Part shown: in pieces, positions 5,583 to 47,774 of the stretch | Position numbering within the stretch: the stretch's first letter is position 1 | Layout: every line of letters begins with the position of its first letter | DNA from: a virus | Length of the DNA stretch: 64,000 bases | IMG/VR virus record: IMGVR_UViG_3300046319_000183 | Strand: one strand, 5' to 3' | Translations under genes and position numbers: made by a program | Notes under the pieces: generated by a model | The model's database searches: none | The model's input: the letters and a program-made list of their open reading frames with translations, nothing else | Told to the model about the DNA's origin: nothing

Positions 5583-5653
5583 GCAGAAAGTGGTGTAATG
5601 GCAACACGTAAAAGGGAATTTTTAAACTTTAGGTTCGAATCCTAGGTTCTGCA
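5583..5653 (+). tRNA. tRNA-like gene (about 71 nt), atypical anticodon arm; isotype not assigned
   Basis: Acceptor GCAGAAA/GTTCTGC (6 bp plus one mismatch). D-arm GTGT-AATGGCA-ACAC. T-arm TTAGG-TTCGAAT-CCTAG. Confidence 0.45.
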
Positions 5654-5656
5654 CTA

Positions 5657-36804: not shown

Positions 36805-37187
36805 GACCAATACAAACACAATGGGTGGAAAACTTAAAAGCATACCCAGAAAGACAAATGAAAGACTTTCTTGGACAAGGTTCACCTGAAGAATACAAAG
36901 CATGCTGTCTTGGAGAATTACTTTTATGTAAATATAGAGCTCAAAAGAAAAAACTACCTTTTATAGGAGGAGAATTATATTCGGGAAAAAGTGAAGATGC
37001 TGTAGCTTGTTTAGACAATTATAAATCTTTAGGATTACTTTCTAATACTGGAGAAATTAGAGCAGATGTTGCAGACACTTATCCAGAAGGGACTTTAGCT
37101 GAACTAAATGATTTAACTTCTACTTGGCCTGAAATAGCAGCTTTTGTAGAAGCTAATCCAGACCATTTCTTCACAAAATCAGTATGA
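36795..37187 (+). CDS. hypothetical protein
   Basis: ORF track. Confidence 0.4.
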   Translation: MQLGPIQTQWVENLKAYPERQMKDFLGQGSPEEYKACCLGELLLCKYRAQKKKLPFIGGELYSGKSEDAVACLDNYKSLGLLSNTGEIRADVADTYPEGTLAELNDLTSTWPEIAAFVEANPDHFFTKSV

Positions 37188-38374
37188 AACAGTATTTAGA
37201 ATTATTAGAAAAAATTCAAAAAAAAGGAACTTATAAACCTGCTGCTAGAACCAATATGCCTGGAACTTTAAGTCTATTTGGAGAACAACTAAGATTTGAT
37301 TTACAAGAAGGGTTTCCTATGGTGACAACTAAAAAAGTTTCTTTCAAAAACATAGTCGTAGAACTTTTGTGGTTTCTCAAAGGAGATACAAACATCAAGT
37401 ACTTAGTAGATAATAGTTGTAACATCTGGAATGAAGATGCATACAATTATTATAAGAAAATATTTAAAGGACATGAAGGAGTACTTCCTTCTTTAGAAGA
37501 GTTTATTCAAGAAGTTAAAACAGGTACAAGAGAATCAAATCTTCCTAACTATACTTATGGAGATTGCGGTAAGCAATATGGCTGGCTTTGGAGAAGGTGG
37601 GAAAACCCTTTTATTGAGTATGGAAATTATGTTGCAAATAATGCAATAGACCAACTCAAAGACTTAATTGAAGGATTAAAGACTAATCCTATGTCTCGTA
37701 GGCACGTTATAACAGCTTGGAACCCAGCTACTCTTGATGATATGGCTTTGAATGCTTGTCATGCTTTTGTACAGTTTAATTGTAGACCTGTTTATGGTAA
37801 GTCAGACTTTACAGAACATAATGGTAAAAAATATTACAATCTTAATGAACGTAATTATCAAAGATTAGAAAGTTTTAAAGAATTTTACCCAGAACTATAC
37901 AACAAAATTGGTAGGCAATCTGGTATAACTCCTTATGAAGAGATGTTAAAAGATAAAAAAACAATGGATGATTTGAATATTTCTTCGTATTATCTTGATT
38001 GTCAGCTTTATCAGCGTTCAGCAGATGTAGTCTTGGGTGTACCTTACAATATTGCTTCATACGCTTTGCTTACAGAAATACTTGCAAAAATTTGTAATAT
38101 GATTCCTGGAGAATTTGTTCATACTTTTGGTGATGTACATATCTACGAGAACCATCTTGAAGCAGTCAAAGAACAATTAGAAAGAGAACCTAAATTTTTA
38201 CCTACTTTAAAAATAAGTGAGGAATGGTTAGATTTTGATACTATTAATTTACTAAAATCTTCAGAACATTTAACAGCATTATTTCATTCTACGTTATTAA
38301 GTGATTTTTCTTTAGAAAACTATAATCCTCATCCCAAATTAAAAACAGAAACTAAACTATCAACAGGATTATGA
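37184..38374 (+). CDS. thyA: thymidylate synthase (ThyA family) with large insertions (396 aa)
   Basis: MKQYLELLEKI...GFPMVTTKKVSFKNIVVELLWFLKGDTNIKYL. Active-site ACHAFVQF. LYQRSADVVLGVPYNIASYALLTE. About 80-aa and about 25-aa insertions relative to 264-aa ThyA. Confidence 0.85.
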   Translation: MKQYLELLEKIQKKGTYKPAARTNMPGTLSLFGEQLRFDLQEGFPMVTTKKVSFKNIVVELLWFLKGDTNIKYLVDNSCNIWNEDAYNYYKKIFKGHEGVLPSLEEFIQEVKTGTRESNLPNYTYGDCGKQYGWLWRRWENPFIEYGNYVANNAIDQLKDLIEGLKTNPMSRRHVITAWNPATLDDMALNACHAFVQFNCRPVYGKSDFTEHNGKKYYNLNERNYQRLESFKEFYPELYNKIGRQSGITPYEEMLKDKKTMDDLNISSYYLDCQLYQRSADVVLGVPYNIASYALLTEILAKICNMIPGEFVHTFGDVHIYENHLEAVKEQLEREPKFLPTLKISEEWLDFDTINLLKSSEHLTALFHSTLLSDFSLENYNPHPKLKTETKLSTGL

Positions 38375-39708: not shown

Positions 39709-40134
39709 ATGTGGACATACCAAGGAAAAGAATACAAAGAAGTACATGACTCCTCTTTACAGGGTTTCATTTACAAAATTACCTACACAGACCCAAAAAC
39801 AAAAGAAGAGTTTCAGTATATAGGCAAGAAGCAATTTTTTGCTAAAAGAACTGTAAAAAAAGGAAAGAAAGCCCTTGCAGCAATGACTGATAAAAGAGGT
39901 TCAAAAAAAGTTACAACAGTAAAAGAATCTGATTGGAAAACCTACCAGTCTTCTAATCAATTCTTAAAGAAAATAGACCCTAAATTTCTGAAAAAAGAAA
40001 TTATAAGTTTTTGCCAAGATGCTATGCAATGTACTTATCTTGAAGTCAAGTATCAAATGACTCATGAAGTTTTGGAAAGCTCTAAATGGCTAAACGGCAA
40101 TATTTTAGGTAAACTATTTAATCAATACAAATGA
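39709..40134 (+). CDS. GIY-YIG nuclease domain protein
   Basis: GFIYKITYT...EFQYIGKK, the GIY...YIG motif. Confidence 0.5.
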   Translation: MWTYQGKEYKEVHDSSLQGFIYKITYTDPKTKEEFQYIGKKQFFAKRTVKKGKKALAAMTDKRGSKKVTTVKESDWKTYQSSNQFLKKIDPKFLKKEIISFCQDAMQCTYLEVKYQMTHEVLESSKWLNGNILGKLFNQYK

Positions 40135-40910: not shown

Positions 40911-41433
40911 ACAAGGAGACTTATTTCAAAGAGCTCTCAAAGGAGAGTTTGATGTAATAGGTCATGGAACTAACTGTTTCTGTACCGCACCATATGGAGG
41001 TATAGCAGCATTATTTGAAAAACATTTTGTTATTTCAGATATGGAAGGAGAAAATCCTATGTACAGAGGAAAGTACAATAAAATGGCTTCAGTAGGAATG
41101 AAAAAGGTCTACATACATGAAGTTACCAAACAGCTTATTCAGCAAAAAGACTTCGAAGCTTCGCTTATACCTCAAATGTACAAACACTTGGTAGTAGCTA
41201 ACTGTTATACTCAATTTAATGCTGGTCCAGATTTAGATACTATAGCTTTGCTTATGTGTCTAAAGAAATTAGCCTACTATTGCAAAGCAAACAATTCGAA
41301 GTTAGCAATTCCTTTAATTGGTTGTGGTATAGCTGGAGGAGACCCAAAAGTTATTGTACCATACATGCAGAAGCTTCTCGCAGAAGTAGATGCAACACTT
41401 ATTGTTTTACCAGAAGATTTTAAAAGGATATGA
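40897..41433 (+). CDS. macro domain (ADP-ribose binding/hydrolase) protein
   Basis: DVIGHGTNCFCTAPYGGIAALF and IPLIGCGIAGGDP resemble macro-domain Gly-rich motifs. Start placed at ATG 40897. Confidence 0.5.
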   Translation: MLKIEQGDLFQRALKGEFDVIGHGTNCFCTAPYGGIAALFEKHFVISDMEGENPMYRGKYNKMASVGMKKVYIHEVTKQLIQQKDFEASLIPQMYKHLVVANCYTQFNAGPDLDTIALLMCLKKLAYYCKANNSKLAIPLIGCGIAGGDPKVIVPYMQKLLAEVDATLIVLPEDFKRI

Positions 41434-42053
41434 AAATTAAATATCCTAAAACATTCCACGTCCCTTCTTCTTTAGGTTGCACTTCAGATGATAAAAAGTT
41501 AGAAAGTATAGACTCATTAGAACAAGGTCTATACTTGATAACAGAAAAGATGGATGGAGAAAACACTACTATGATGAAGGATTGTATTTATGCAAGGTCT
41601 TTGGATAGTAATAATCATCCTTCTAGAAACTATGTTAAAGGTATTTGGGGCAATATCTCTTATCGAATCCCTAAGAATTGGAGAATTTGTGGAGAAAATC
41701 TGTATGCTAAACATTCTATTTACTACAAAAATCTAGTTGGGTACTTTTATGTGTATTCCATATGGAATGAAGAGAATGTGTGTTTGTCTTATGTAGATAC
41801 TAATATGTGGTGTAACGAACTTAATCTACATCATGTTCCAGTACTAGGCATGATTCAGAAAGAAGAACTTGTTACATATGAATTTAAACTAGATTTAAAT
41901 GAACATGAAGGGTATGTGGTTAGAAACACAAAAGCTTTTCATTTTAATGACTTTCAGAAAAATGTAGCAAAGTGGGTTAGACCACAGCATGTACAAACTG
42001 ATGCACATTGGATGCAGTCAGAAATTGTACCAAATCAATTAATATATGGATGA
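41430..42053 (+). CDS. RNA-ligase-like nucleotidyltransferase (Rnl2-type KxDG motif), minimal 207 aa
   Basis: Motif I ITEKMDGEN. Motif III-like ICGENLY. Motif IV EGYVVR. Motif V KWVR. Confidence 0.5.
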   Translation: MKIKYPKTFHVPSSLGCTSDDKKLESIDSLEQGLYLITEKMDGENTTMMKDCIYARSLDSNNHPSRNYVKGIWGNISYRIPKNWRICGENLYAKHSIYYKNLVGYFYVYSIWNEENVCLSYVDTNMWCNELNLHHVPVLGMIQKEELVTYEFKLDLNEHEGYVVRNTKAFHFNDFQKNVAKWVRPQHVQTDAHWMQSEIVPNQLIYG

Positions 42054-42080
42054 TGAAGAAAATTTAAACAAACTTGTATT

Positions 42081-42311
42081 TTGTATTTTTGTTTTCCTTG
42101 TACTTCTTATAGCACTTTACATATTATGATATTTTCAATAACATTATTTTTAACAATTAACTACATCCTTGCTTATTTTGATTTTAAATATTTTAAAATA
42201 CAGGTAACAAAAAATGGAAAAACTAGAATATCAATTTGGTTTTTCTTAGCAACACTTTGTAGTTTACTTTACCAAGTTTATTTTTGGTTTCATTATTTTC
42301 AAATCATATGA
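42081..42311 (+). CDS. small hydrophobic hypothetical protein
   Basis: ORF track. May be non-coding. Confidence 0.2.
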   Translation: MYFCFPCTSYSTLHIMIFSITLFLTINYILAYFDFKYFKIQVTKNGKTRISIWFFLATLCSLLYQVYFWFHYFQII

Positions 42312-42685
42312 TATTGGATGCATTATTTTTAACAAAAGAACAGCTTCAAGAAAGAAAAGCTGTTGAAGCTGAAAAGAAGCTTCGAAAAGAAGAAGAAAGA
42401 CTTAAAAAGGAAGAAAAAAATATAGAAGTGTTTTTTGAAAAAGTAAAAGTATATAAAAACATAACTTTACTCAATTCAAATTTTGAACCTTTTTATGTTT
42501 GGGGTATTAAAAAATCTGAAAAAAAAGTTTTGTGTATTTTCCCAGATGATTTACCAGGCTATTGTACAAAAGTAGACTATGATATAAGCTGGTTAGAAAG
42601 CTGTAAAAAAAGATATTTAAAGCTTACAGAAGATATTAAAATTTTAGAACAAAAGAAAAAAGAAGATGAGCAGGAAAAATCTTAA
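42284..42685 (+). CDS. hypothetical Lys/Glu-rich protein
   Basis: ORF track. Confidence 0.4.
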   Translation: MVSLFSNHMILDALFLTKEQLQERKAVEAEKKLRKEEERLKKEEKNIEVFFEKVKVYKNITLLNSNFEPFYVWGIKKSEKKVLCIFPDDLPGYCTKVDYDISWLESCKKRYLKLTEDIKILEQKKKEDEQEKS

Positions 42686-42770
42686 AGTCTTAATACTCAT
42701 TGGATTACCTGGTTCAGGTATAGTTTTTTAAAATAAATAATAGGTTTTCCTGGGTCTGGAATTAATTTTT
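42676..42770 (+). repeat. two degenerate duplicated copies of the 5' (P-loop-encoding) segment of the downstream polynucleotide kinase gene
   Basis: AATCTTAAAGTCTTAATACTCATTGGATTACCTGGTTCAGGTATAG (encodes LILIGLPGSG) and GGTTTTCCTGGGTCTGGAAT (GFPGSG). Compare 43521-43575, AATCTTAAAGTATTGATTCTAGTTGGGTTGCCATAACTAGGTTCTGGTAAAAGT. Confidence 0.6.
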
Positions 42771-42799
42771 ATGTATATTTGTGAAAACAAATTATATAA

Positions 42800-43528
42800 A
42801 TGAGCAAAACAGATTTAGGTAGAAATTGTCCTAAGTGTAATAAACTAATTACATATAAACATTATGCTTCTTATTTTCAAGCAAATAGAATAAATTCTTT
42901 ATGCAAACAATGCATGGTAAATAAAGGAAAATTTAAATTAGGTCAAGAATGTCCAAATAAAACAAGCTTTATCACTTGCTGGGTTAACAAATTTGGTCAA
43001 GAAGAAGCTTCTTCTAAATTATTATCTTATAAAGAAAAACAATCTATAGCTAATACAGGAACTAAAAATAACATGTATGGAAAACCTGCTCCTCAAGGTT
43101 CTGGAAATGGGTGGTCTGGTTGGTATAATTCTTGGTTTTTTAGAAGCTTAAATGAATTAGCTTTTATGGTTAGAGTTATAGAGAGATTTAACTTTTCTTG
43201 GGTCTCCGCAGAAAAGAAAGAATTAAGAATACCTTATATTGACTATAAAAATAGCCAACGCACTTATACAGCGGATTTTTTGCTAAATAACAAATATTTA
43301 GTAGAATGTAAACCAAAAAAATTATTTAATTCTCCTCAAAATTTAGAAAAAAAGAAAGCAGCACTTTTGTATTGTAAAGAAAAAAACTTTATATATAAAC
43401 AAATAGAAACTGAAAAACTAACTTATGAGGAAATTAATAATTTAATTGAGTTAAAGAAATTAAAATTTACAGATAAATATAATGAAAAATTTAAACAATT
43501 CAACAGCAACCCAACGAAAGAATCTTAA
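42800..43528 (+). CDS. zinc-ribbon plus PD-(D/E)xK-like nuclease (putative free-standing homing endonuclease)
   Basis: CPKCNK...CKQC. ...YTADFLLNNKYLVECKPKK (D...E.K). Confidence 0.4.
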   Translation: MSKTDLGRNCPKCNKLITYKHYASYFQANRINSLCKQCMVNKGKFKLGQECPNKTSFITCWVNKFGQEEASSKLLSYKEKQSIANTGTKNNMYGKPAPQGSGNGWSGWYNSWFFRSLNELAFMVRVIERFNFSWVSAEKKELRIPYIDYKNSQRTYTADFLLNNKYLVECKPKKLFNSPQNLEKKKAALLYCKEKNFIYKQIETEKLTYEEINNLIELKKLKFTDKYNEKFKQFNSNPTKES

Positions 43529-44417
43529 AGTATTGATTCTAGTTGGGTTGCCATAACTAGGTTCTGGTAAAAGTACATTTGCTAAAGAACATTTAGCAAA
43601 AAATCCAAATTGGACTAGAGTTAACAGAGATGATTTTAGAGGAATGCTTCAGAATCAACAAATCTGTGAACCAAAAATAGAAGCTATGATTAATGAGTTG
43701 CAAGACTTCACAATCATACAAGCTTTAAAAGCAAAGCAGAATGTCATAATAGACAACACAAATCTTAAGACTAAGTGCATAGAGCATTTCTGCCAACTTG
43801 TAGAGGATAAAGCTGAGGTAGATTTTTTATTATTCAATACTTCTATAAAAAAATGTATTGAAAGAGATAAAGAAAGAACTAATCCTGTAGGAGCTGTCGT
43901 AATTGAGCGTATGCACAAAGATTTAGAAATACTTCTAGATGCTCATGATTTTTCTCATAGACCTGTTAAGCCTAAAATCTATACAAATCCTACACCAAAC
44001 CTTCAGTTGCCCAATTGTTATGTATTCGACATAGATGGTACTCTTGCTCATATGAATGGACACAGGGGCCCATTTGATTGGTCTAAAGTAGATAGAGATG
44101 ATTATGATTTGGCTGTAGTAGCAACTTTAAGGAAATTATCTCAAACAGATAAAATAATTCTACTTTCTGGTAGAGATGAAGAAGCTAGAGAAAAGACCTT
44201 AGAATGGCTAGAATTTTACATGATACCATTTGATGCTTTGTATATGAGACCTAAAGGAGACTTTAGAAAAGATACAATAATCAAAAAGGAATTGTACAAT
44301 CAGCATTTGAAAGATAAGTTTAATGTTATAGCCGTTTTTGATGACCGCACCTCAGTAGTTCAAATGTGGAGAAAACTTGGTCTTAAATGTTTTGAAGTAG
44401 AACATCATGATTTTTAA
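43482..44417 (+). pseudogene. T4-type polynucleotide 5'-kinase/3'-phosphatase (Pnkp/PseT homolog) interrupted by an in-frame TAA inside the P-loop
   Basis: Frame reads MKNLNNSTATQRKNLKVLILVGLP*LGSGKSTFAKEHLAKNPNWTRVNRDDFR...VFDIDGTLAHMNGHRGPFD...VFDDRTSVVQMWRKLGLKCFEV. It is collinear with T4 Pnk (GCPGSGKST, NRDDYR, DVDGTL, DDRTQVVEMWRRIG). Stop TAA at 43554-43556. The phosphatase half (track ORF 43644-44417) is intact. Confidence 0.7.
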
Positions 44418-44444
44418 GAAAAAAGACCTTGGATTTTATGAATT

Positions 44445-45542
44445 TTGTGTAGTAGTCATACTATGCTTAGCAACAATAATATTGACCTTTACAGGTCTTC
44501 ACTGTTTAATTTATCATTAATGTTTTGGAAAAAAATAAATAAGGCTTTATCATTAGATGAAGAGCCTACACTAGTAGTACCAGGATTTACACCTCCTACT
44601 ATAGAGTTAGAACCTTTTGGTTCTAATCCATCTAAAAGTTTTGAACCAATTGAGGTTTATGAGGAAATGACAGAAGAAGTAATTACTTCTGCAACAATAC
44701 AAAAAGACATATCTTACACTTTAGATAATCTTTTAGAAGAGATGTCAAAACCTTATACCATAGAAGAGAATTTGACTTTACTTAAAGCTACAAAAGAAAA
44801 TTTTGAAAGAGAAAACAAAGAACTTTCTGACAAGATTCAAACTTTAAAAGATTTAGGATTTGACAATACTCCTTCTGTAAAGGTTACACAGACTAACTTA
44901 GATTTAGTAAGAAAGAGATATGAAGATAAATCTAAAGAGTTGGAAGACTCTTTAAAGTATAATGCTGACATTCTTAGACTTACTCAAGAATATGCTTTAA
45001 AGTATCCAAGCTTTAAGTTTGTGCCTAGAGAAGTAATGATGCAGATTTTAAAAAAATATGGATTAATCTTGGGAGAAGCTAGAATGTATGGAAAAGAAAT
45101 TCCTACTAAAGCTTTGGAAACTATTTCTCAGTTTTCACAACAGATAAAAGATTCTTCTATAAATATAATTGCAAGAACTAGAGGTGATTATATGACTCAT
45201 TATGTAGATTTTTTATATACAACAGAGACAGCAGAAGAACTTCAAAGAGAAATACGACTTGATGCATTAACTGCACGCTATAATACAAGGCATAGTCTTG
45301 TTACAACTGTAACCATGTTAAAAATGGTAGCTCCTTTAGAGCACTTTACAAACAGGAAAAATTGTGTTATAACTAAGGAAAATATCCTTGAATATTCTTC
45401 TAGAGAAATGAATGCTGAAATTGAAAAACGTAGATTAGAAGACCCTATTGCTTGCTTAGAAGTTCCTATGGGATACATAATTCTTGCAGCTTGGGACAAA
45501 GAAGCAGAAATTCCTGAAATCAAGAATCCTCTGAATAACTAA
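44445..45542 (+). CDS. hypothetical protein
   Basis: ORF track. Confidence 0.45.
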   Translation: MCSSHTMLSNNNIDLYRSSLFNLSLMFWKKINKALSLDEEPTLVVPGFTPPTIELEPFGSNPSKSFEPIEVYEEMTEEVITSATIQKDISYTLDNLLEEMSKPYTIEENLTLLKATKENFERENKELSDKIQTLKDLGFDNTPSVKVTQTNLDLVRKRYEDKSKELEDSLKYNADILRLTQEYALKYPSFKFVPREVMMQILKKYGLILGEARMYGKEIPTKALETISQFSQQIKDSSINIIARTRGDYMTHYVDFLYTTETAEELQREIRLDALTARYNTRHSLVTTVTMLKMVAPLEHFTNRKNCVITKENILEYSSREMNAEIEKRRLEDPIACLEVPMGYIILAAWDKEAEIPEIKNPLNN

Positions 45543-46222: not shown

Positions 46223-46476
46223 AAGAAGGAGATATTATTCTAGGTTATTTTAGTGGTATTTTTAAAGTAACAAAAGTAACTGCTAGACCAAACATTGCAC
46301 CATTAATTAGTATGGTAAAAGTCTTTAATTCTAAATTTGAGCCAGTACATAGTAAGAAAGAATATTCGTGTGATGCAGGTTATTGTGTACACATAGAAGA
46401 ATATTTAGAAAATGAGCTACTAGCTCTAGAAAAAAGAAAAAAAAAGCTTTTAGATTTTAAAAGAGAAAATTTATGA
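46219..46476 (+). CDS. hypothetical protein
   Basis: ATGA overlap. Confidence 0.4.
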   Translation: MKEGDIILGYFSGIFKVTKVTARPNIAPLISMVKVFNSKFEPVHSKKEYSCDAGYCVHIEEYLENELLALEKRKKKLLDFKRENL

Positions 46477-47774
46477 ACTTAAAGATTAGCGAGAATTCGC
46501 AGAATTATGCAGCCACTGTGATTGAAATTAAAGAGATTTTCAATATAGAAGGAGCTGATAAAATAAAAAGAACTGTTGTAGAAGGTAACAGTATAGTAGT
46601 AGGGCTTGATGTACAAGTTGGTCAACATATGATTTGGTTTTGTGCTGGAACTCAATTGGCTCCAGAATTCTGTAGAGAAAATGATTTGTATGACCAACCT
46701 CTAGAAAATGATGATGTTACAAAAAGAGGATATATTTCTTTTAAAAAAAGGCTTGTAAAAGCTATCAAACTAAGAGGTATAGAATCTAATGGAATGTTGT
46801 TACCTTTGAGTTGCTTAAAGTATCTACATGAAACTCCAGAATCCTTCTTAAAGCTAGGAGATGCTTTTACTGAGTTGGACGAAAATACGATTTGTCAAAA
46901 ATATGTAGTTCCTGTAAGACTTCAAAACTCTGTAAGTTCTGGACAAAAGAAACAAGTAAATAAAGTTCAAGAGCATTTAGTAGATGGGCAGTTTAAATTC
47001 CATGAAGAAACCTCTCATTTTGCAAAAAATATGCATAAATTTGATTGGAATACACCTATCGTAATCACTAGAAAAATGCATGGTTCATCAGGTATTGTCT
47101 CTCATTGTTTGATTAAAAAAGATTTGACTTGGAAAGACAAAGTAGCTAAATTTTTCAAAGTAAAAGTTGAAGAAAAAGAATATGGCTTTGTATGGTCTTC
47201 TGGTAAACCTAAATCAAAAATACCAAAAGGTTTAATCTCTGATTCTAAAAATTGGAAGACTTCAAATCAATCCTACTACACCAATGACATTTGGTTAAAG
47301 GCTTACGAATTGCTTAAAGATAAAACTGAAAAAGGAATAAGCTTGTACTTTGAGATTGTAGGACAAGGAATCCAAGGCCCTTCATATACATATAACCAAG
47401 AGTATGGTATTTACATATACAGAATAACTTCTACCAATCCTGATGGAAACACTTTGGAGTTTTCTTGGAATGACATAAAGGTTTACTGTGAGAAATATGG
47501 ATTGCAGACTGTTCAAGAGTTCTATCAAGGATTATTCTCTACTTGGGGTAAAGCTCAAAAGCTAGTACCTTCTAAGTTTGGTAGCTTTGATAAAGTCCTT
47601 GAGAAACTTGGAGAAGTTTACCTAAACAAATCATTTCCAGACTGTGAAGTTGATGAAGGTATTTGCGTAAGGAACGAACTAACCAAAGAAACTTTTAAAC
47701 TTAAAAGTCCTAAATTCTTAGTTAAAGAATCTGCTGATTTAGAACTTGGTGTAGAAAATATTGAAGAACAATGA
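46473..47774 (+). CDS. putative RNA ligase family nucleotidyltransferase (Rnl2-like KxHG motif) with N-terminal extension
   Basis: Motif I ITRKMHGSSG (compare T4 Rnl2 KIHGTN). Motif III/IV-like LYFEIVGQG. Confidence 0.4.
   Translation: MNLKISENSQNYAATVIEIKEIFNIEGADKIKRTVVEGNSIVVGLDVQVGQHMIWFCAGTQLAPEFCRENDLYDQPLENDDVTKRGYISFKKRLVKAIKLRGIESNGMLLPLSCLKYLHETPESFLKLGDAFTELDENTICQKYVVPVRLQNSVSSGQKKQVNKVQEHLVDGQFKFHEETSHFAKNMHKFDWNTPIVITRKMHGSSGIVSHCLIKKDLTWKDKVAKFFKVKVEEKEYGFVWSSGKPKSKIPKGLISDSKNWKTSNQSYYTNDIWLKAYELLKDKTEKGISLYFEIVGQGIQGPSYTYNQEYGIYIYRITSTNPDGNTLEFSWNDIKVYCEKYGLQTVQEFYQGLFSTWGKAQKLVPSKFGSFDKVLEKLGEVYLNKSFPDCEVDEGICVRNELTKETFKLKSPKFLVKESADLELGVENIEEQ

Follow-up and report, generated by a model that had tools for sequence, protein, structure and literature searches.

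A putative homing-endonuclease cassette in the P-loop codons of a phage pnk gene and a possible ribosomal hop across its insert

The pnk gene (kinase and HAD phosphatase) in a 64,000-nt stretch of DNA from the virus record IMGVR_UViG_3300046319_000183 of IMG/VR (hereafter the window, numbered from its first nucleotide; all features of the locus described below are on the + strand) raises a simple question: how, if at all, is a functional kinase made from a gene in which the six nucleotides TAACTA, opening with a stop codon, separate the two halves of the P-loop? The initial annotation had correctly seen this interruption without interpreting it, and regarded the repeated fragments of the pnk 5' end nearby as degenerate scars of an inserted homing endonuclease gene or as leftovers of gene conversion. 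The answer that we favor, at a probability of roughly 0.6, is that a homing-endonuclease cassette has entered the gene carrying an immunity insert, which ribosomes would cross by a short, hairpin-driven hop.

The 5' segment of pnk is present three times. Over 35 ungapped nucleotides, identity between copy 1 (42675-42709) and copy 2 (43518-43552) is 77%, and their match picks up again past the 6-nt gap TAACTA (43554-43559), where GGTTCAGGTA (42711-42720) faces GGTTCTGGTA (43560-43569), extending through GGTTC[A/T]GGTA. The local alignment score of the pair is 19, against a mean of 10 and a maximum of 17 for dinucleotide shuffles (0/1000 reach 19); similarity no better than chance in a permutation test, which the initial annotation had named as the finding that would undo its case, was thus not obtained, and all three of its copies exist, at positions shifted by 1-3 nt. 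Translated from the ATG at 42666, copy 1 yields MSRKNLKVLILIGLPGSG, then IVF and a stop codon; copy 2 reads …RKNLKVLILVGLP, stop, LGSGKST, that is, …RKNLKVLILVGLP-TAA-CTA-GSGKSTFAKEH…; and copy 3 (42743-42760, GGTTTTCCTGGGTCTGGA) encodes GFPGSG. The motif G.P[GA][ST]G occurs twice in the six-frame translation of the window, in copies 1 and 3 only. Among the nine differences between copies 1 and 2, eight are synonymous third-position changes and one replaces I with V. The element, TAA included, is identical base for base in 7 of 8 independently assembled contigs (JGI and SRA samples; ~1,040-1,100 nt, 42600-43699), and the eighth (L007) has a single substitution at 43692, outside the element; because independent assemblies contain the same bases, assembly error is excluded for the TAA and for the repeat structure. 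The samples with this phage are JGI 3300046327, 3300046337 and 3300048690 and runs of the SRR3543xxxx series.

The state of the gene before the insertion is preserved in a relative. A query composed of copy 1 fused to the pnk body retrieved P0001, a protein of 300 aa that is 95% identical to the fusion over its full length and is encoded on L009, a 115-kb contig syntenic with the window. This contig carries a single uninterrupted pnk, with a P-loop site of the form …GGATTACCTGGTTCAGGTAAGAGT…, and contains neither the nuclease gene nor the duplicated fragments. In the alignment with L009, the window has an insertion of ~840 bp (42720-43559), the right junction of which is ambiguous within GGTTCTGGT (43560-43568); identity to L009 in the flanks adjoining the insert is 90% on the left and 96% on the right, and a co-conversion gradient around the insertion was looked for in this comparison and not seen. 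The insertion is polymorphic: the cassette is present in the window and in eight contigs, whereas L009 and L010 (flanks at ~91% nucleotide identity) have an intact pnk and no nuclease. That a mobile homing-endonuclease cassette (42720-43559) has invaded the P-loop codons of pnk is, in our assessment, highly probable. The insertion of a free-standing nuclease gene at the 5' end of pnk, as proposed in the initial annotation, is borne out by the intact, nuclease-less gene of L009, and the contrary case that it had envisaged, nuclease-less relatives still carrying the duplicated fragments, is not what L009 presents. Its scar also exists, in copy 1, although not in copies 2 and 3: the old 5' end of pnk is stranded upstream of the cassette as a dead stub (42666-42731), the first 18 residues of which (MSRKNLKVLILIGLPGSG) are identical to those of the uninterrupted pnk of L009 (P0001), before homology to the intact gene ends at 42719/42720 and the reading frame runs into cassette sequence (IVF and stop). 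On the other side lies the pnk body (43560-44417; 285 codons and a stop codon), which starts with GSGKST…, comprises the kinase and HAD phosphatase domains (Pfam AAA_33 and HAD_PNKP) and is 95% identical to P0001, with a ratio of nonsynonymous to synonymous substitution rates (dN/dS) of 0.06. Gene callers begin the window pnk only at Met 43644, which gives a 257-aa product without the P-loop. Single-protein searches yielded no close relatives in IMG/VR, and there are no DNA relatives of the window among 50,697 cultured-phage records.

Between the stub and the body lies the nuclease gene (42800-43528), which encodes 242 aa with a zinc ribbon, a NUMOD3-like region and a TnsA-like PD-(D/E)xK domain (PF08722, E 8e-7). 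In an alignment with 19 homologs, C10, C13, C35, C38, E119, D159 and K171 are invariant and E169 is nearly so, the catalytic motif being E119 … D159 … E169-x-K171; PF07460 NUMOD3 is present in most of the homologs. For the AlphaFold2 (AF2) model of the protein, with a predicted local distance difference test score (pLDDT) of 84, the top PDB folds are TnsA (Foldseek probability 0.99) and the catalytic domain of I-Bth0305I (0.97), at a sequence identity of 14-16%. We collected nuclease homologs from 128 non-redundant loci on viral and metagenome contigs and fetched 160 of ~400 metagenomic loci. The 5' end of a P-loop nucleoside triphosphatase (NTPase) gene adjoins the nuclease in 93 of the 128 loci; an intact P-loop NTPase open reading frame (ORF) lies directly downstream of the nuclease in 55, an interrupted kinase lies downstream in 24, an interrupted kinase is divergently placed in 14, and neither arrangement is found in 34. 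One nuclease, 43% identical to that of the window, overlaps the start of an intact pnk (L011). Given that the homolog loci adjoin P-loop genes, the family appears to behave as free-standing homing endonucleases that target P-loop codons, and the window nuclease is putatively one of these; its activity and target would follow from the anatomy of the locus and from the precedent of phage T4 discussed below.

The loci with the closest nuclease homologs first revealed the peculiarity of the window pnk elsewhere: a stop codon directly after the Pro of …G-h-P·G-S-G-K-S/T (the dot marks the gap), followed by 2-4 nt. Among all fetched loci, we found 49 distinct metagenomic elements with the Pro codon, the stop codon and the additional 2-4 nt. 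The stop codon stands directly after the CCN codon in all 49 and can be any of the three (TAA in 22, TGA in 18, TAG in 9); the Pro codon is CCG in 34, CCT in 12 and CCA in 3; and the gap measures 5 nt in 11 elements, 6 nt in 37 and 7 nt in one. In every case (49/49), removal of the gap restores both h-h-h-h-x-G-h-P·G-x-G-K-S/T and the downstream frame, and the gap-free product of the window would match P0001 at the P-loop. In the window, this layout comprises the Pro codon CCA (43551-43553, the proposed take-off site), TAA (43554-43556) and CTA (43557-43559, the proposed landing site). Preference for CCG is evident as a separate observation, this codon being used in 34/49 interrupted elements compared to 2/16 uninterrupted P-loops at the same loci; in the window phage, with CCA at the take-off site, CCG accounts for 1 of 491 Pro codons. 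When IMG/VR viral contigs were searched with the DNA pattern of the site, all 31 places found were true elements, and in 596 Gb of bacterial and archaeal genomes the same pattern gave 65 hits, approximately the chance level, none with the hairpin described below.

Coding capacity is conserved on both sides of the gap. Upstream, the window has a replacement N-terminal segment, or leader, MKNLNNSTATQRKNLKVLILVGLP (43482-43553; 24 aa), which starts at its own ATG, overlaps the 3' end of the nuclease gene in another frame and provides strand beta-1 along with the first half of the P-loop. Homologous leaders with an ATG are present in all related elements examined, the start codon lying 19-56 codons upstream, and the leaders retain the hydrophobic beta-1 pattern. 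Downstream, the G-S/A-G-K-S/T codons show synonymous variation between loci, including AGY/TCN serine switches; the ORFs are complete in 40/40 checkable elements (115-288 aa); and all 10 tested ORFs belong to the AAA_33 kinases and match the profile from position 9 onward, which leaves them short of exactly the part that the leader provides. The AAA_33 kinases of interrupted elements are paired with an HAD phosphatase domain or with a tRNA-ligase CPD domain, or stand alone. Among interrupted paralogous loci, dN/dS is 0.15-0.36, their nucleases having diverged to a similar degree. Copy 2 apparently is a conserved, translated replacement N-terminus that recurs in 49 elements, not the decaying duplicate or gene-conversion leftover for which it had been taken.

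These observations bear on the plainest reading of the locus, namely, that the cassette broke the P-loop of the kinase and left a pseudogene, with copy 2 and the TAA as inconsequential damage and at most a 257-aa product from Met 43644 consisting of the phosphatase domain and a dead kinase. That 257-aa ORF is indeed all that gene callers annotate, tRNA-repair functions are often dispensable to phages, and the low dN/dS of the window relative to L009 could be older than the insertion. Damage of this kind would, however, have to be repeated in 49 distinct, highly diverged elements, all with the stop codon, the hairpin and the leader ATG, and with complete ORFs in 40/40 checkable cases in which G-x-G-K-S/T is kept through synonymous codon variation. 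The elements also outlast the nuclease. At least nine elements with >=1.8 kb of upstream sequence, a count that allows for divergently oriented nucleases, lack the nuclease gene and keep the leader, the hairpin, the gap and the complete ORF; a decay series is represented by L180 and L185, which retain only a C-terminal remnant of the nuclease, and L203, where the stub and the leader remain and the nuclease between them has been deleted. With the covariation of the hairpin added, we consider a pseudogene unlikely, even if no other rival of the hop fares better.

The hairpin (43506-43551) consists of an outer stem of 10 bp (43506-43515/43542-43551) and an inner stem (43519-43524/43535-43540), with a predicted free energy (dG) of -25.4 kcal/mol and a z-score of -4.8 (-6.7 when computed for the 62-mer). 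Its 3' arm is formed by the x-G-h-P codons, and its final base in the window is the first base of the take-off Pro codon. A two-tier hairpin is found in the 62 nt ending at the Pro codon in all 49 interrupted elements (dG -18 to -29 kcal/mol, z -3.7 to -8.7), where it ends 2-4 nt ahead of the end of that codon. In a control screen of 53 sequences, the mean dG was -6 and the mean z 0.1, and the only two with z < -3.5 both turned out to be interrupted loci, so that a hairpin was present in 0/51 uninterrupted controls; it is likewise absent from the window stub (dG -4.1, z 0.1) and from the native pnk of L009 (z -0.7). The stem covaries: both partners change in 8/12 pairs, and at two positions all four Watson-Crick combinations occur. 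The score for covariation, 0.471 as compared with 0.136 in shuffles (0/500 reach it) and <=0.096 with the partners slid, comes from an alignment of the arms only, in a register taken from the predicted fold, which leans towards structure; alignment of full-length leaders with MAFFT and RNAalifold misaligned the 5' arms, and the arms-only alignment was used instead. A fixed-window test of cross-complementarity was weakly discriminating, as G-U pairs and a shared GGG/CCC core inflate the scores. The 5' arm is read in different frames, for instance, as M-Q-P-S in L093 and S-S-P-R in L043, so it is the base pairing that is conserved rather than the peptide. At the divergent loci (L023, L026, L039, L040, L052, L062, L073, L083, L092, L106, L150, L168 and L169; 14 non-redundant loci counted), the nuclease gene lies ~130-150 nt upstream of the take-off Pro codon and is transcribed away from the interrupted kinase, and the hairpin is accordingly part of the kinase leader rather than of the 3' end of the nuclease gene.

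A further possibility is that two polypeptides are made, the leader ending at the stop codon and translation reinitiating at the next codons, with the leader either complementing the body non-covalently or acting as a regulatory upstream ORF. The stop codon of every element and the shortness of the leaders (19-56 aa) are in keeping with this scheme. There is, however, no start codon at the resume site, and most elements are devoid of AUG, GUG and UUG at this codon and in its vicinity; folding is unlikely for a body that lacks strand beta-1 and half of the P-loop; and the requirement for the hairpin is left unexplained. We regard this scheme as very unlikely, with only the intron considered next being more so.

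Stubs such as copy 1 are left by the nuclease family in general. Upstream of these nucleases, it is common to find N-terminal coding copies that are complete and terminate in the P-loop codons; they are present in 11/17 interrupted loci and in about a dozen intact loci, and their homology ends, depending on the relative, after P, PG, PGS or PGSG, which fits repeated break-and-join better than a fixed splice site. Such variation of the stub/cassette junction is hard to reconcile with a self-splicing intron spanning 42720-43559/43568, in which case the stub would be exon 1 and the intron would encode the nuclease as its homing endonuclease. An insertion within a conserved motif, with exon-like sequence on both sides, is what an intron would look like, and one reading of the ambiguous right junction gives it 849 nt (3 x 283). 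A scan of 41500-45000, however, produced no group I, group II or other Rfam match at E<=10; only ~80 + 30 nt lie outside the ORF; and, by eye, no junction within the repeated GGTTCNGGT offers both a 5' exon with a terminal U and an intron with a terminal G. Moreover, the leader possesses an ATG of its own and resembles protein-coding sequence in its beta-1 pattern, and the gap is also carried by elements that lack the stub or the nuclease. Of all the explanations weighed here, splicing seems to us the most far-fetched. In three loci (L133, L019, L080), an upstream stub is combined with an uninterrupted replacement N-terminus, with neither gap nor hairpin; a 'spare first exon' architecture thus also exists without the recoding insert.

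Copy 3 (42743-42760, GGTTTTCCTGGGTCTGGA), an uninterrupted mimic of the P-loop site, is not a degenerate scar either: in the alignment, it falls on a motif that 14 related cassettes conserve (…TTGnGnGGATTnnGTGnTTTTGGATTT…) ~50 nt ahead of the ATG of the nuclease gene. In these relatives, the motif has the form of a P-loop site, degenerate and without an interruption, and a TATAAT-like box comes next. The homing endonuclease I-TevI represses its own expression via an operator that resembles its homing site. By pure analogy, the degenerate target-site copy just upstream of the nuclease gene, beside a -10-like box in the related cassettes, may be an operator of the nuclease, with putative binding and repression; the window motif may equally be a relic of an older insertion.

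Taken in order, the cassette offers a degenerate mimic of the target site, the nuclease gene and a replacement 5' coding segment (ATG 43482, strand beta-1, G-L-P). The TAACTA insert would split the recognition site of the nuclease and so shield the carrier genome from its own enzyme, a protective role suggested by the analogy with mobA/gene 60 of T4 and by the anatomy of the cassette. The price would be a stop codon in the P-loop, and the hop that we propose would pay it as follows. The ribosome would pause where peptidyl-tRNA(Pro) occupies CCA and the A site holds the stop codon, and it would fail to terminate; Pro-stop contexts terminate poorly, and tRNA(Pro) is prone to shifting. At this point, the ribosome would enclose the 3' arm of the 10-bp hairpin, the last base of which is the first of the Pro codon, and re-zipping of the hairpin on the exit side would compete for that base and drag the mRNA forward, until peptidyl-tRNA(Pro) could re-pair with a Pro or near-cognate triplet 5-7 nt downstream (in the window, CUA at 6 nt). 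Decoding would resume at GGT to give …VLILVGLP-GSGKST…, and the predicted junction peptide is VLILVGLPGSGK. As a variant, we considered a long hop that would take the ribosome from CCA 43551 to the CCA at 43605, the next one in frame, and rejected it because it would delete the GK[ST] motif.

A single hop covers gaps of 5, 6 and 7 nt, whereas no single readthrough or frameshift event fits all three. This consideration weighs on an alternative in which the gap is decoded, by readthrough where it measures 6 nt and by -1 or +1 frameshifting where it measures 5 or 7 nt, so that two extra residues enter between the Pro and the Gly of the P-loop (predicted product, VLILVGLPxLGSGK). Exactly two residues would be added with any of the three gap lengths, and hairpins and the shift-prone tRNA(Pro) are classic stimulators of frameshifting. 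Nevertheless, near-identical cassettes would need three mechanisms (L027 with 6 nt and L014 with 5 nt share the same leader), there are no slippery sequences and no suppressor tRNA in the window, the product would have Pro instead of Gly or Ala at the first position of Walker A, and frameshift-stimulating structures normally lie 3' of the site, whereas the hairpin here lies 5' of it. Decoding of the gap hence appears improbable, somewhat more so than a pseudogene.

The gap might also be dealt with at the RNA level, the 5-7 nt being cut from the mRNA by hairpin-guided, protein-catalysed cutting and religation or never entering it through realignment of the RNA polymerase. The gene content lends this idea some appeal: RNA ligases and Pnk are among the products of the phage, pnk has an RNA ligase gene on either side, all the targets are RNA-repair-type kinases, and the base of the hairpin is 7-9 nt upstream of the end of the gap. 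We know of no mechanism of this kind, the region has no match to any Rfam family, and repair that itself needs Pnk would face a bootstrapping problem. An obligatory in-frame stop codon, any of the three, right after the Pro is also left unexplained. Removal of the gap from the mRNA is accordingly very unlikely, ranking below its decoding and slightly above the production of two polypeptides.

Several points weigh against the hop. All the evidence for it, even though we judge it probable, is comparative. Landing triplets do not strictly match those of take-off: immediately ahead of the resume codon, 18/49 elements have a Pro codon and the others CUN, ACA or UCA, all only near-cognate to Pro, and because the inserts may share ancestry, even this correspondence lends weak support to re-pairing. 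Spanning the gap, a 3' mini-hairpin of the A-site 'take-off' type is found in only 23/49 elements, that is, not generally, and a Shine-Dalgarno sequence would not fit inside the gap; without a general A-site hairpin and a Shine-Dalgarno sequence in the gap, the mechanism cannot simply equal that of gene 60. After landing, the base of the hairpin would sit only 5-7 nt behind the P site. The window element itself is atypical, with V-G-L-P instead of R-G-h-P and CCA instead of CCG, and its leader ATG lies inside the nuclease ORF with no obvious ribosome-binding site. One element, L181 (IMGVR_UViG_3300037104_000796), has GKN instead of GK[ST]; its 7-nt gap, TAAATCA, is followed by GSGKNT, and it is perhaps a decaying member. 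Much of the purifying selection seen in the comparison of the window with L009 may be older than the insertion, the register of the covariation alignment favors structure, as noted above, and the 50,697 cultured-phage records contain no homologs of the nuclease.

The very few documented natural cases of programmed bypassing comprise gene 60 of T4 and its homologs, the byps of yeast mitochondria and a candidate in phage Hau3, and as late as 2022 the gene 60 cassette was still called unique. In T4, a mobile element joins a homing endonuclease to a bypass cassette, the insert guards against self-cleavage, and cassettes outlive the nuclease; for gene 60, it has been proposed that pairing of the mRNA on its way out of the ribosome drives bypassing forward. 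The T4 mobA/gene 60 pair is the closest known system to the element described here. In both, a nuclease and a recoding insert travel as one mobile element that enters a conserved enzyme gene and brings along the adjoining sequence of the target gene as a diverged copy; the insert opens with a stop codon directly after the take-off codon and is accompanied by a 5' stem-loop; cassettes survive the loss of the nuclease; and the insertions look recent although the element is old. The components, however, all differ: the nuclease is the HNH enzyme MobA in T4 and a PD-(D/E)xK/TnsA-like protein here; the target is a topoisomerase in T4 and the P-loop of an AAA_33 kinase here; the gap is 50 nt in T4 and 5-7 nt here; take-off is from Gly in T4 and from Pro here, with a landing triplet that can be near-cognate only; the gap-internal Shine-Dalgarno sequence and a general A-site hairpin are absent here; and the old 5' end is a dead stub here, in contrast to the functional split subunit of T4. 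With every component different, and with no sequence homology to the gene 60 cassette, the element is not a member of the gene 60 family, although it may work in a similar way.

In the short hops of +5/+6 over stop codons in E. coli (Weiss et al. 1987) and in the 10-nt bypass of the phiHau3 terminase, for which 5' stem-loop stimulators have been proposed, a peptidyl-tRNA leaves a slow A-site codon and re-pairs a few nucleotides downstream, as envisaged here. Those events either are low-level and depend on an artificial context or have a rare UUA codon as their trigger, whereas the present element is a conserved natural module that combines a stop codon, a Pro take-off site and a strong covarying hairpin and is linked to a homing endonuclease. 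The nrdA gene of Aeromonas phage Aeh1, split by mobE ('genes in pieces'), likewise harbors a free-standing homing endonuclease inside an ORF and keeps its function with neither an intron nor an intein, but there both halves are translated and assembled, whereas here the stub of 18 residues is dead and the cassette supplies a duplicate N-terminus. Finally, at the fold level, the catalytic domain of the nuclease is similar to those of I-Bth0305I (EDxHD family), I-Ssp6803I and Tn7 TnsA (identity 14-16%); in distinction from the EDxHD enzymes, it has the motif E…D…ExK, is the product of a free-standing rather than an intron-encoded gene, and possesses an extra N-terminal zinc ribbon and a NUMOD3-like region. 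A prior description of the element was not found in the full-text literature, subscription-only papers being outside the scope of the search.

If the hop is real, these elements would constitute a second natural family of translational bypassing, besides T4 gene 60, with dozens of diverged members, a far shorter gap, a different take-off tRNA and a single strong 5' hairpin as the apparent driver, and hence a minimal natural system in which the model of the ribosome being pushed by pairing of the exiting mRNA could be tested. Recoding would then have been recruited more than once by homing endonucleases to protect the genomes that carry them, and bypassing would be a recurrent answer to the problem of breaking a DNA target site without breaking the protein, rather than an oddity of T4. 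A spare first exon joined to the rest of the gene by a ribosomal hop would represent a third route, beside introns and inteins, by which a homing endonuclease can reside inside a gene, and the affected kinases would be genes currently mis-annotated as truncated. More generally, we see about an even chance that a Pro codon, a stop codon, 2-4 nt and an exit-side hairpin make up a minimal, portable class of efficient programmed ribosomal hop, an immunity device that has been spread by homing-endonuclease cassettes among phage P-loop kinase genes and stays functional after the nuclease is lost.

A few other features of the window are worth recording. A perfect 16-nt inverted repeat (43273-43288/43591-43606; shuffles gave a maximum of 12 nt) has one arm in the nuclease ORF, over the active-site codons A-D-F-L-L-N, and the other in pnk, ~30 nt past the P-loop; it is specific to the window, being absent from 15 related loci, and so is not a feature of the family. 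The surrounding genes form an RNA-repair cluster that includes, besides pnk (43560-44417), an RNA ligase gene (41430-42053), a second RNA-ligase-like gene of 433 aa (~46473-47774), and YqeY along with a Thg1-like gene (~49074 onward). Another putative homing endonuclease gene (~39709-40134; SegE-like GIY-YIG, 141 aa), shared by the window and L009, precedes the RNA ligase gene by 1.3 kb. In L009, an additional 272-aa ORF follows this GIY-YIG gene, and an R2K ATP-grasp gene missing from the window is present; the ThyA-type thymidylate synthase of the window (~37184-38374) has its counterpart in ThyX of L009 (1-438), a non-orthologous replacement. ARAGORN reports a normal tRNA-Leu(AAG) at 8712-8782 and a tRNA-like gene at 5583-5654 with an abnormal two-base 'anticodon' (ga).

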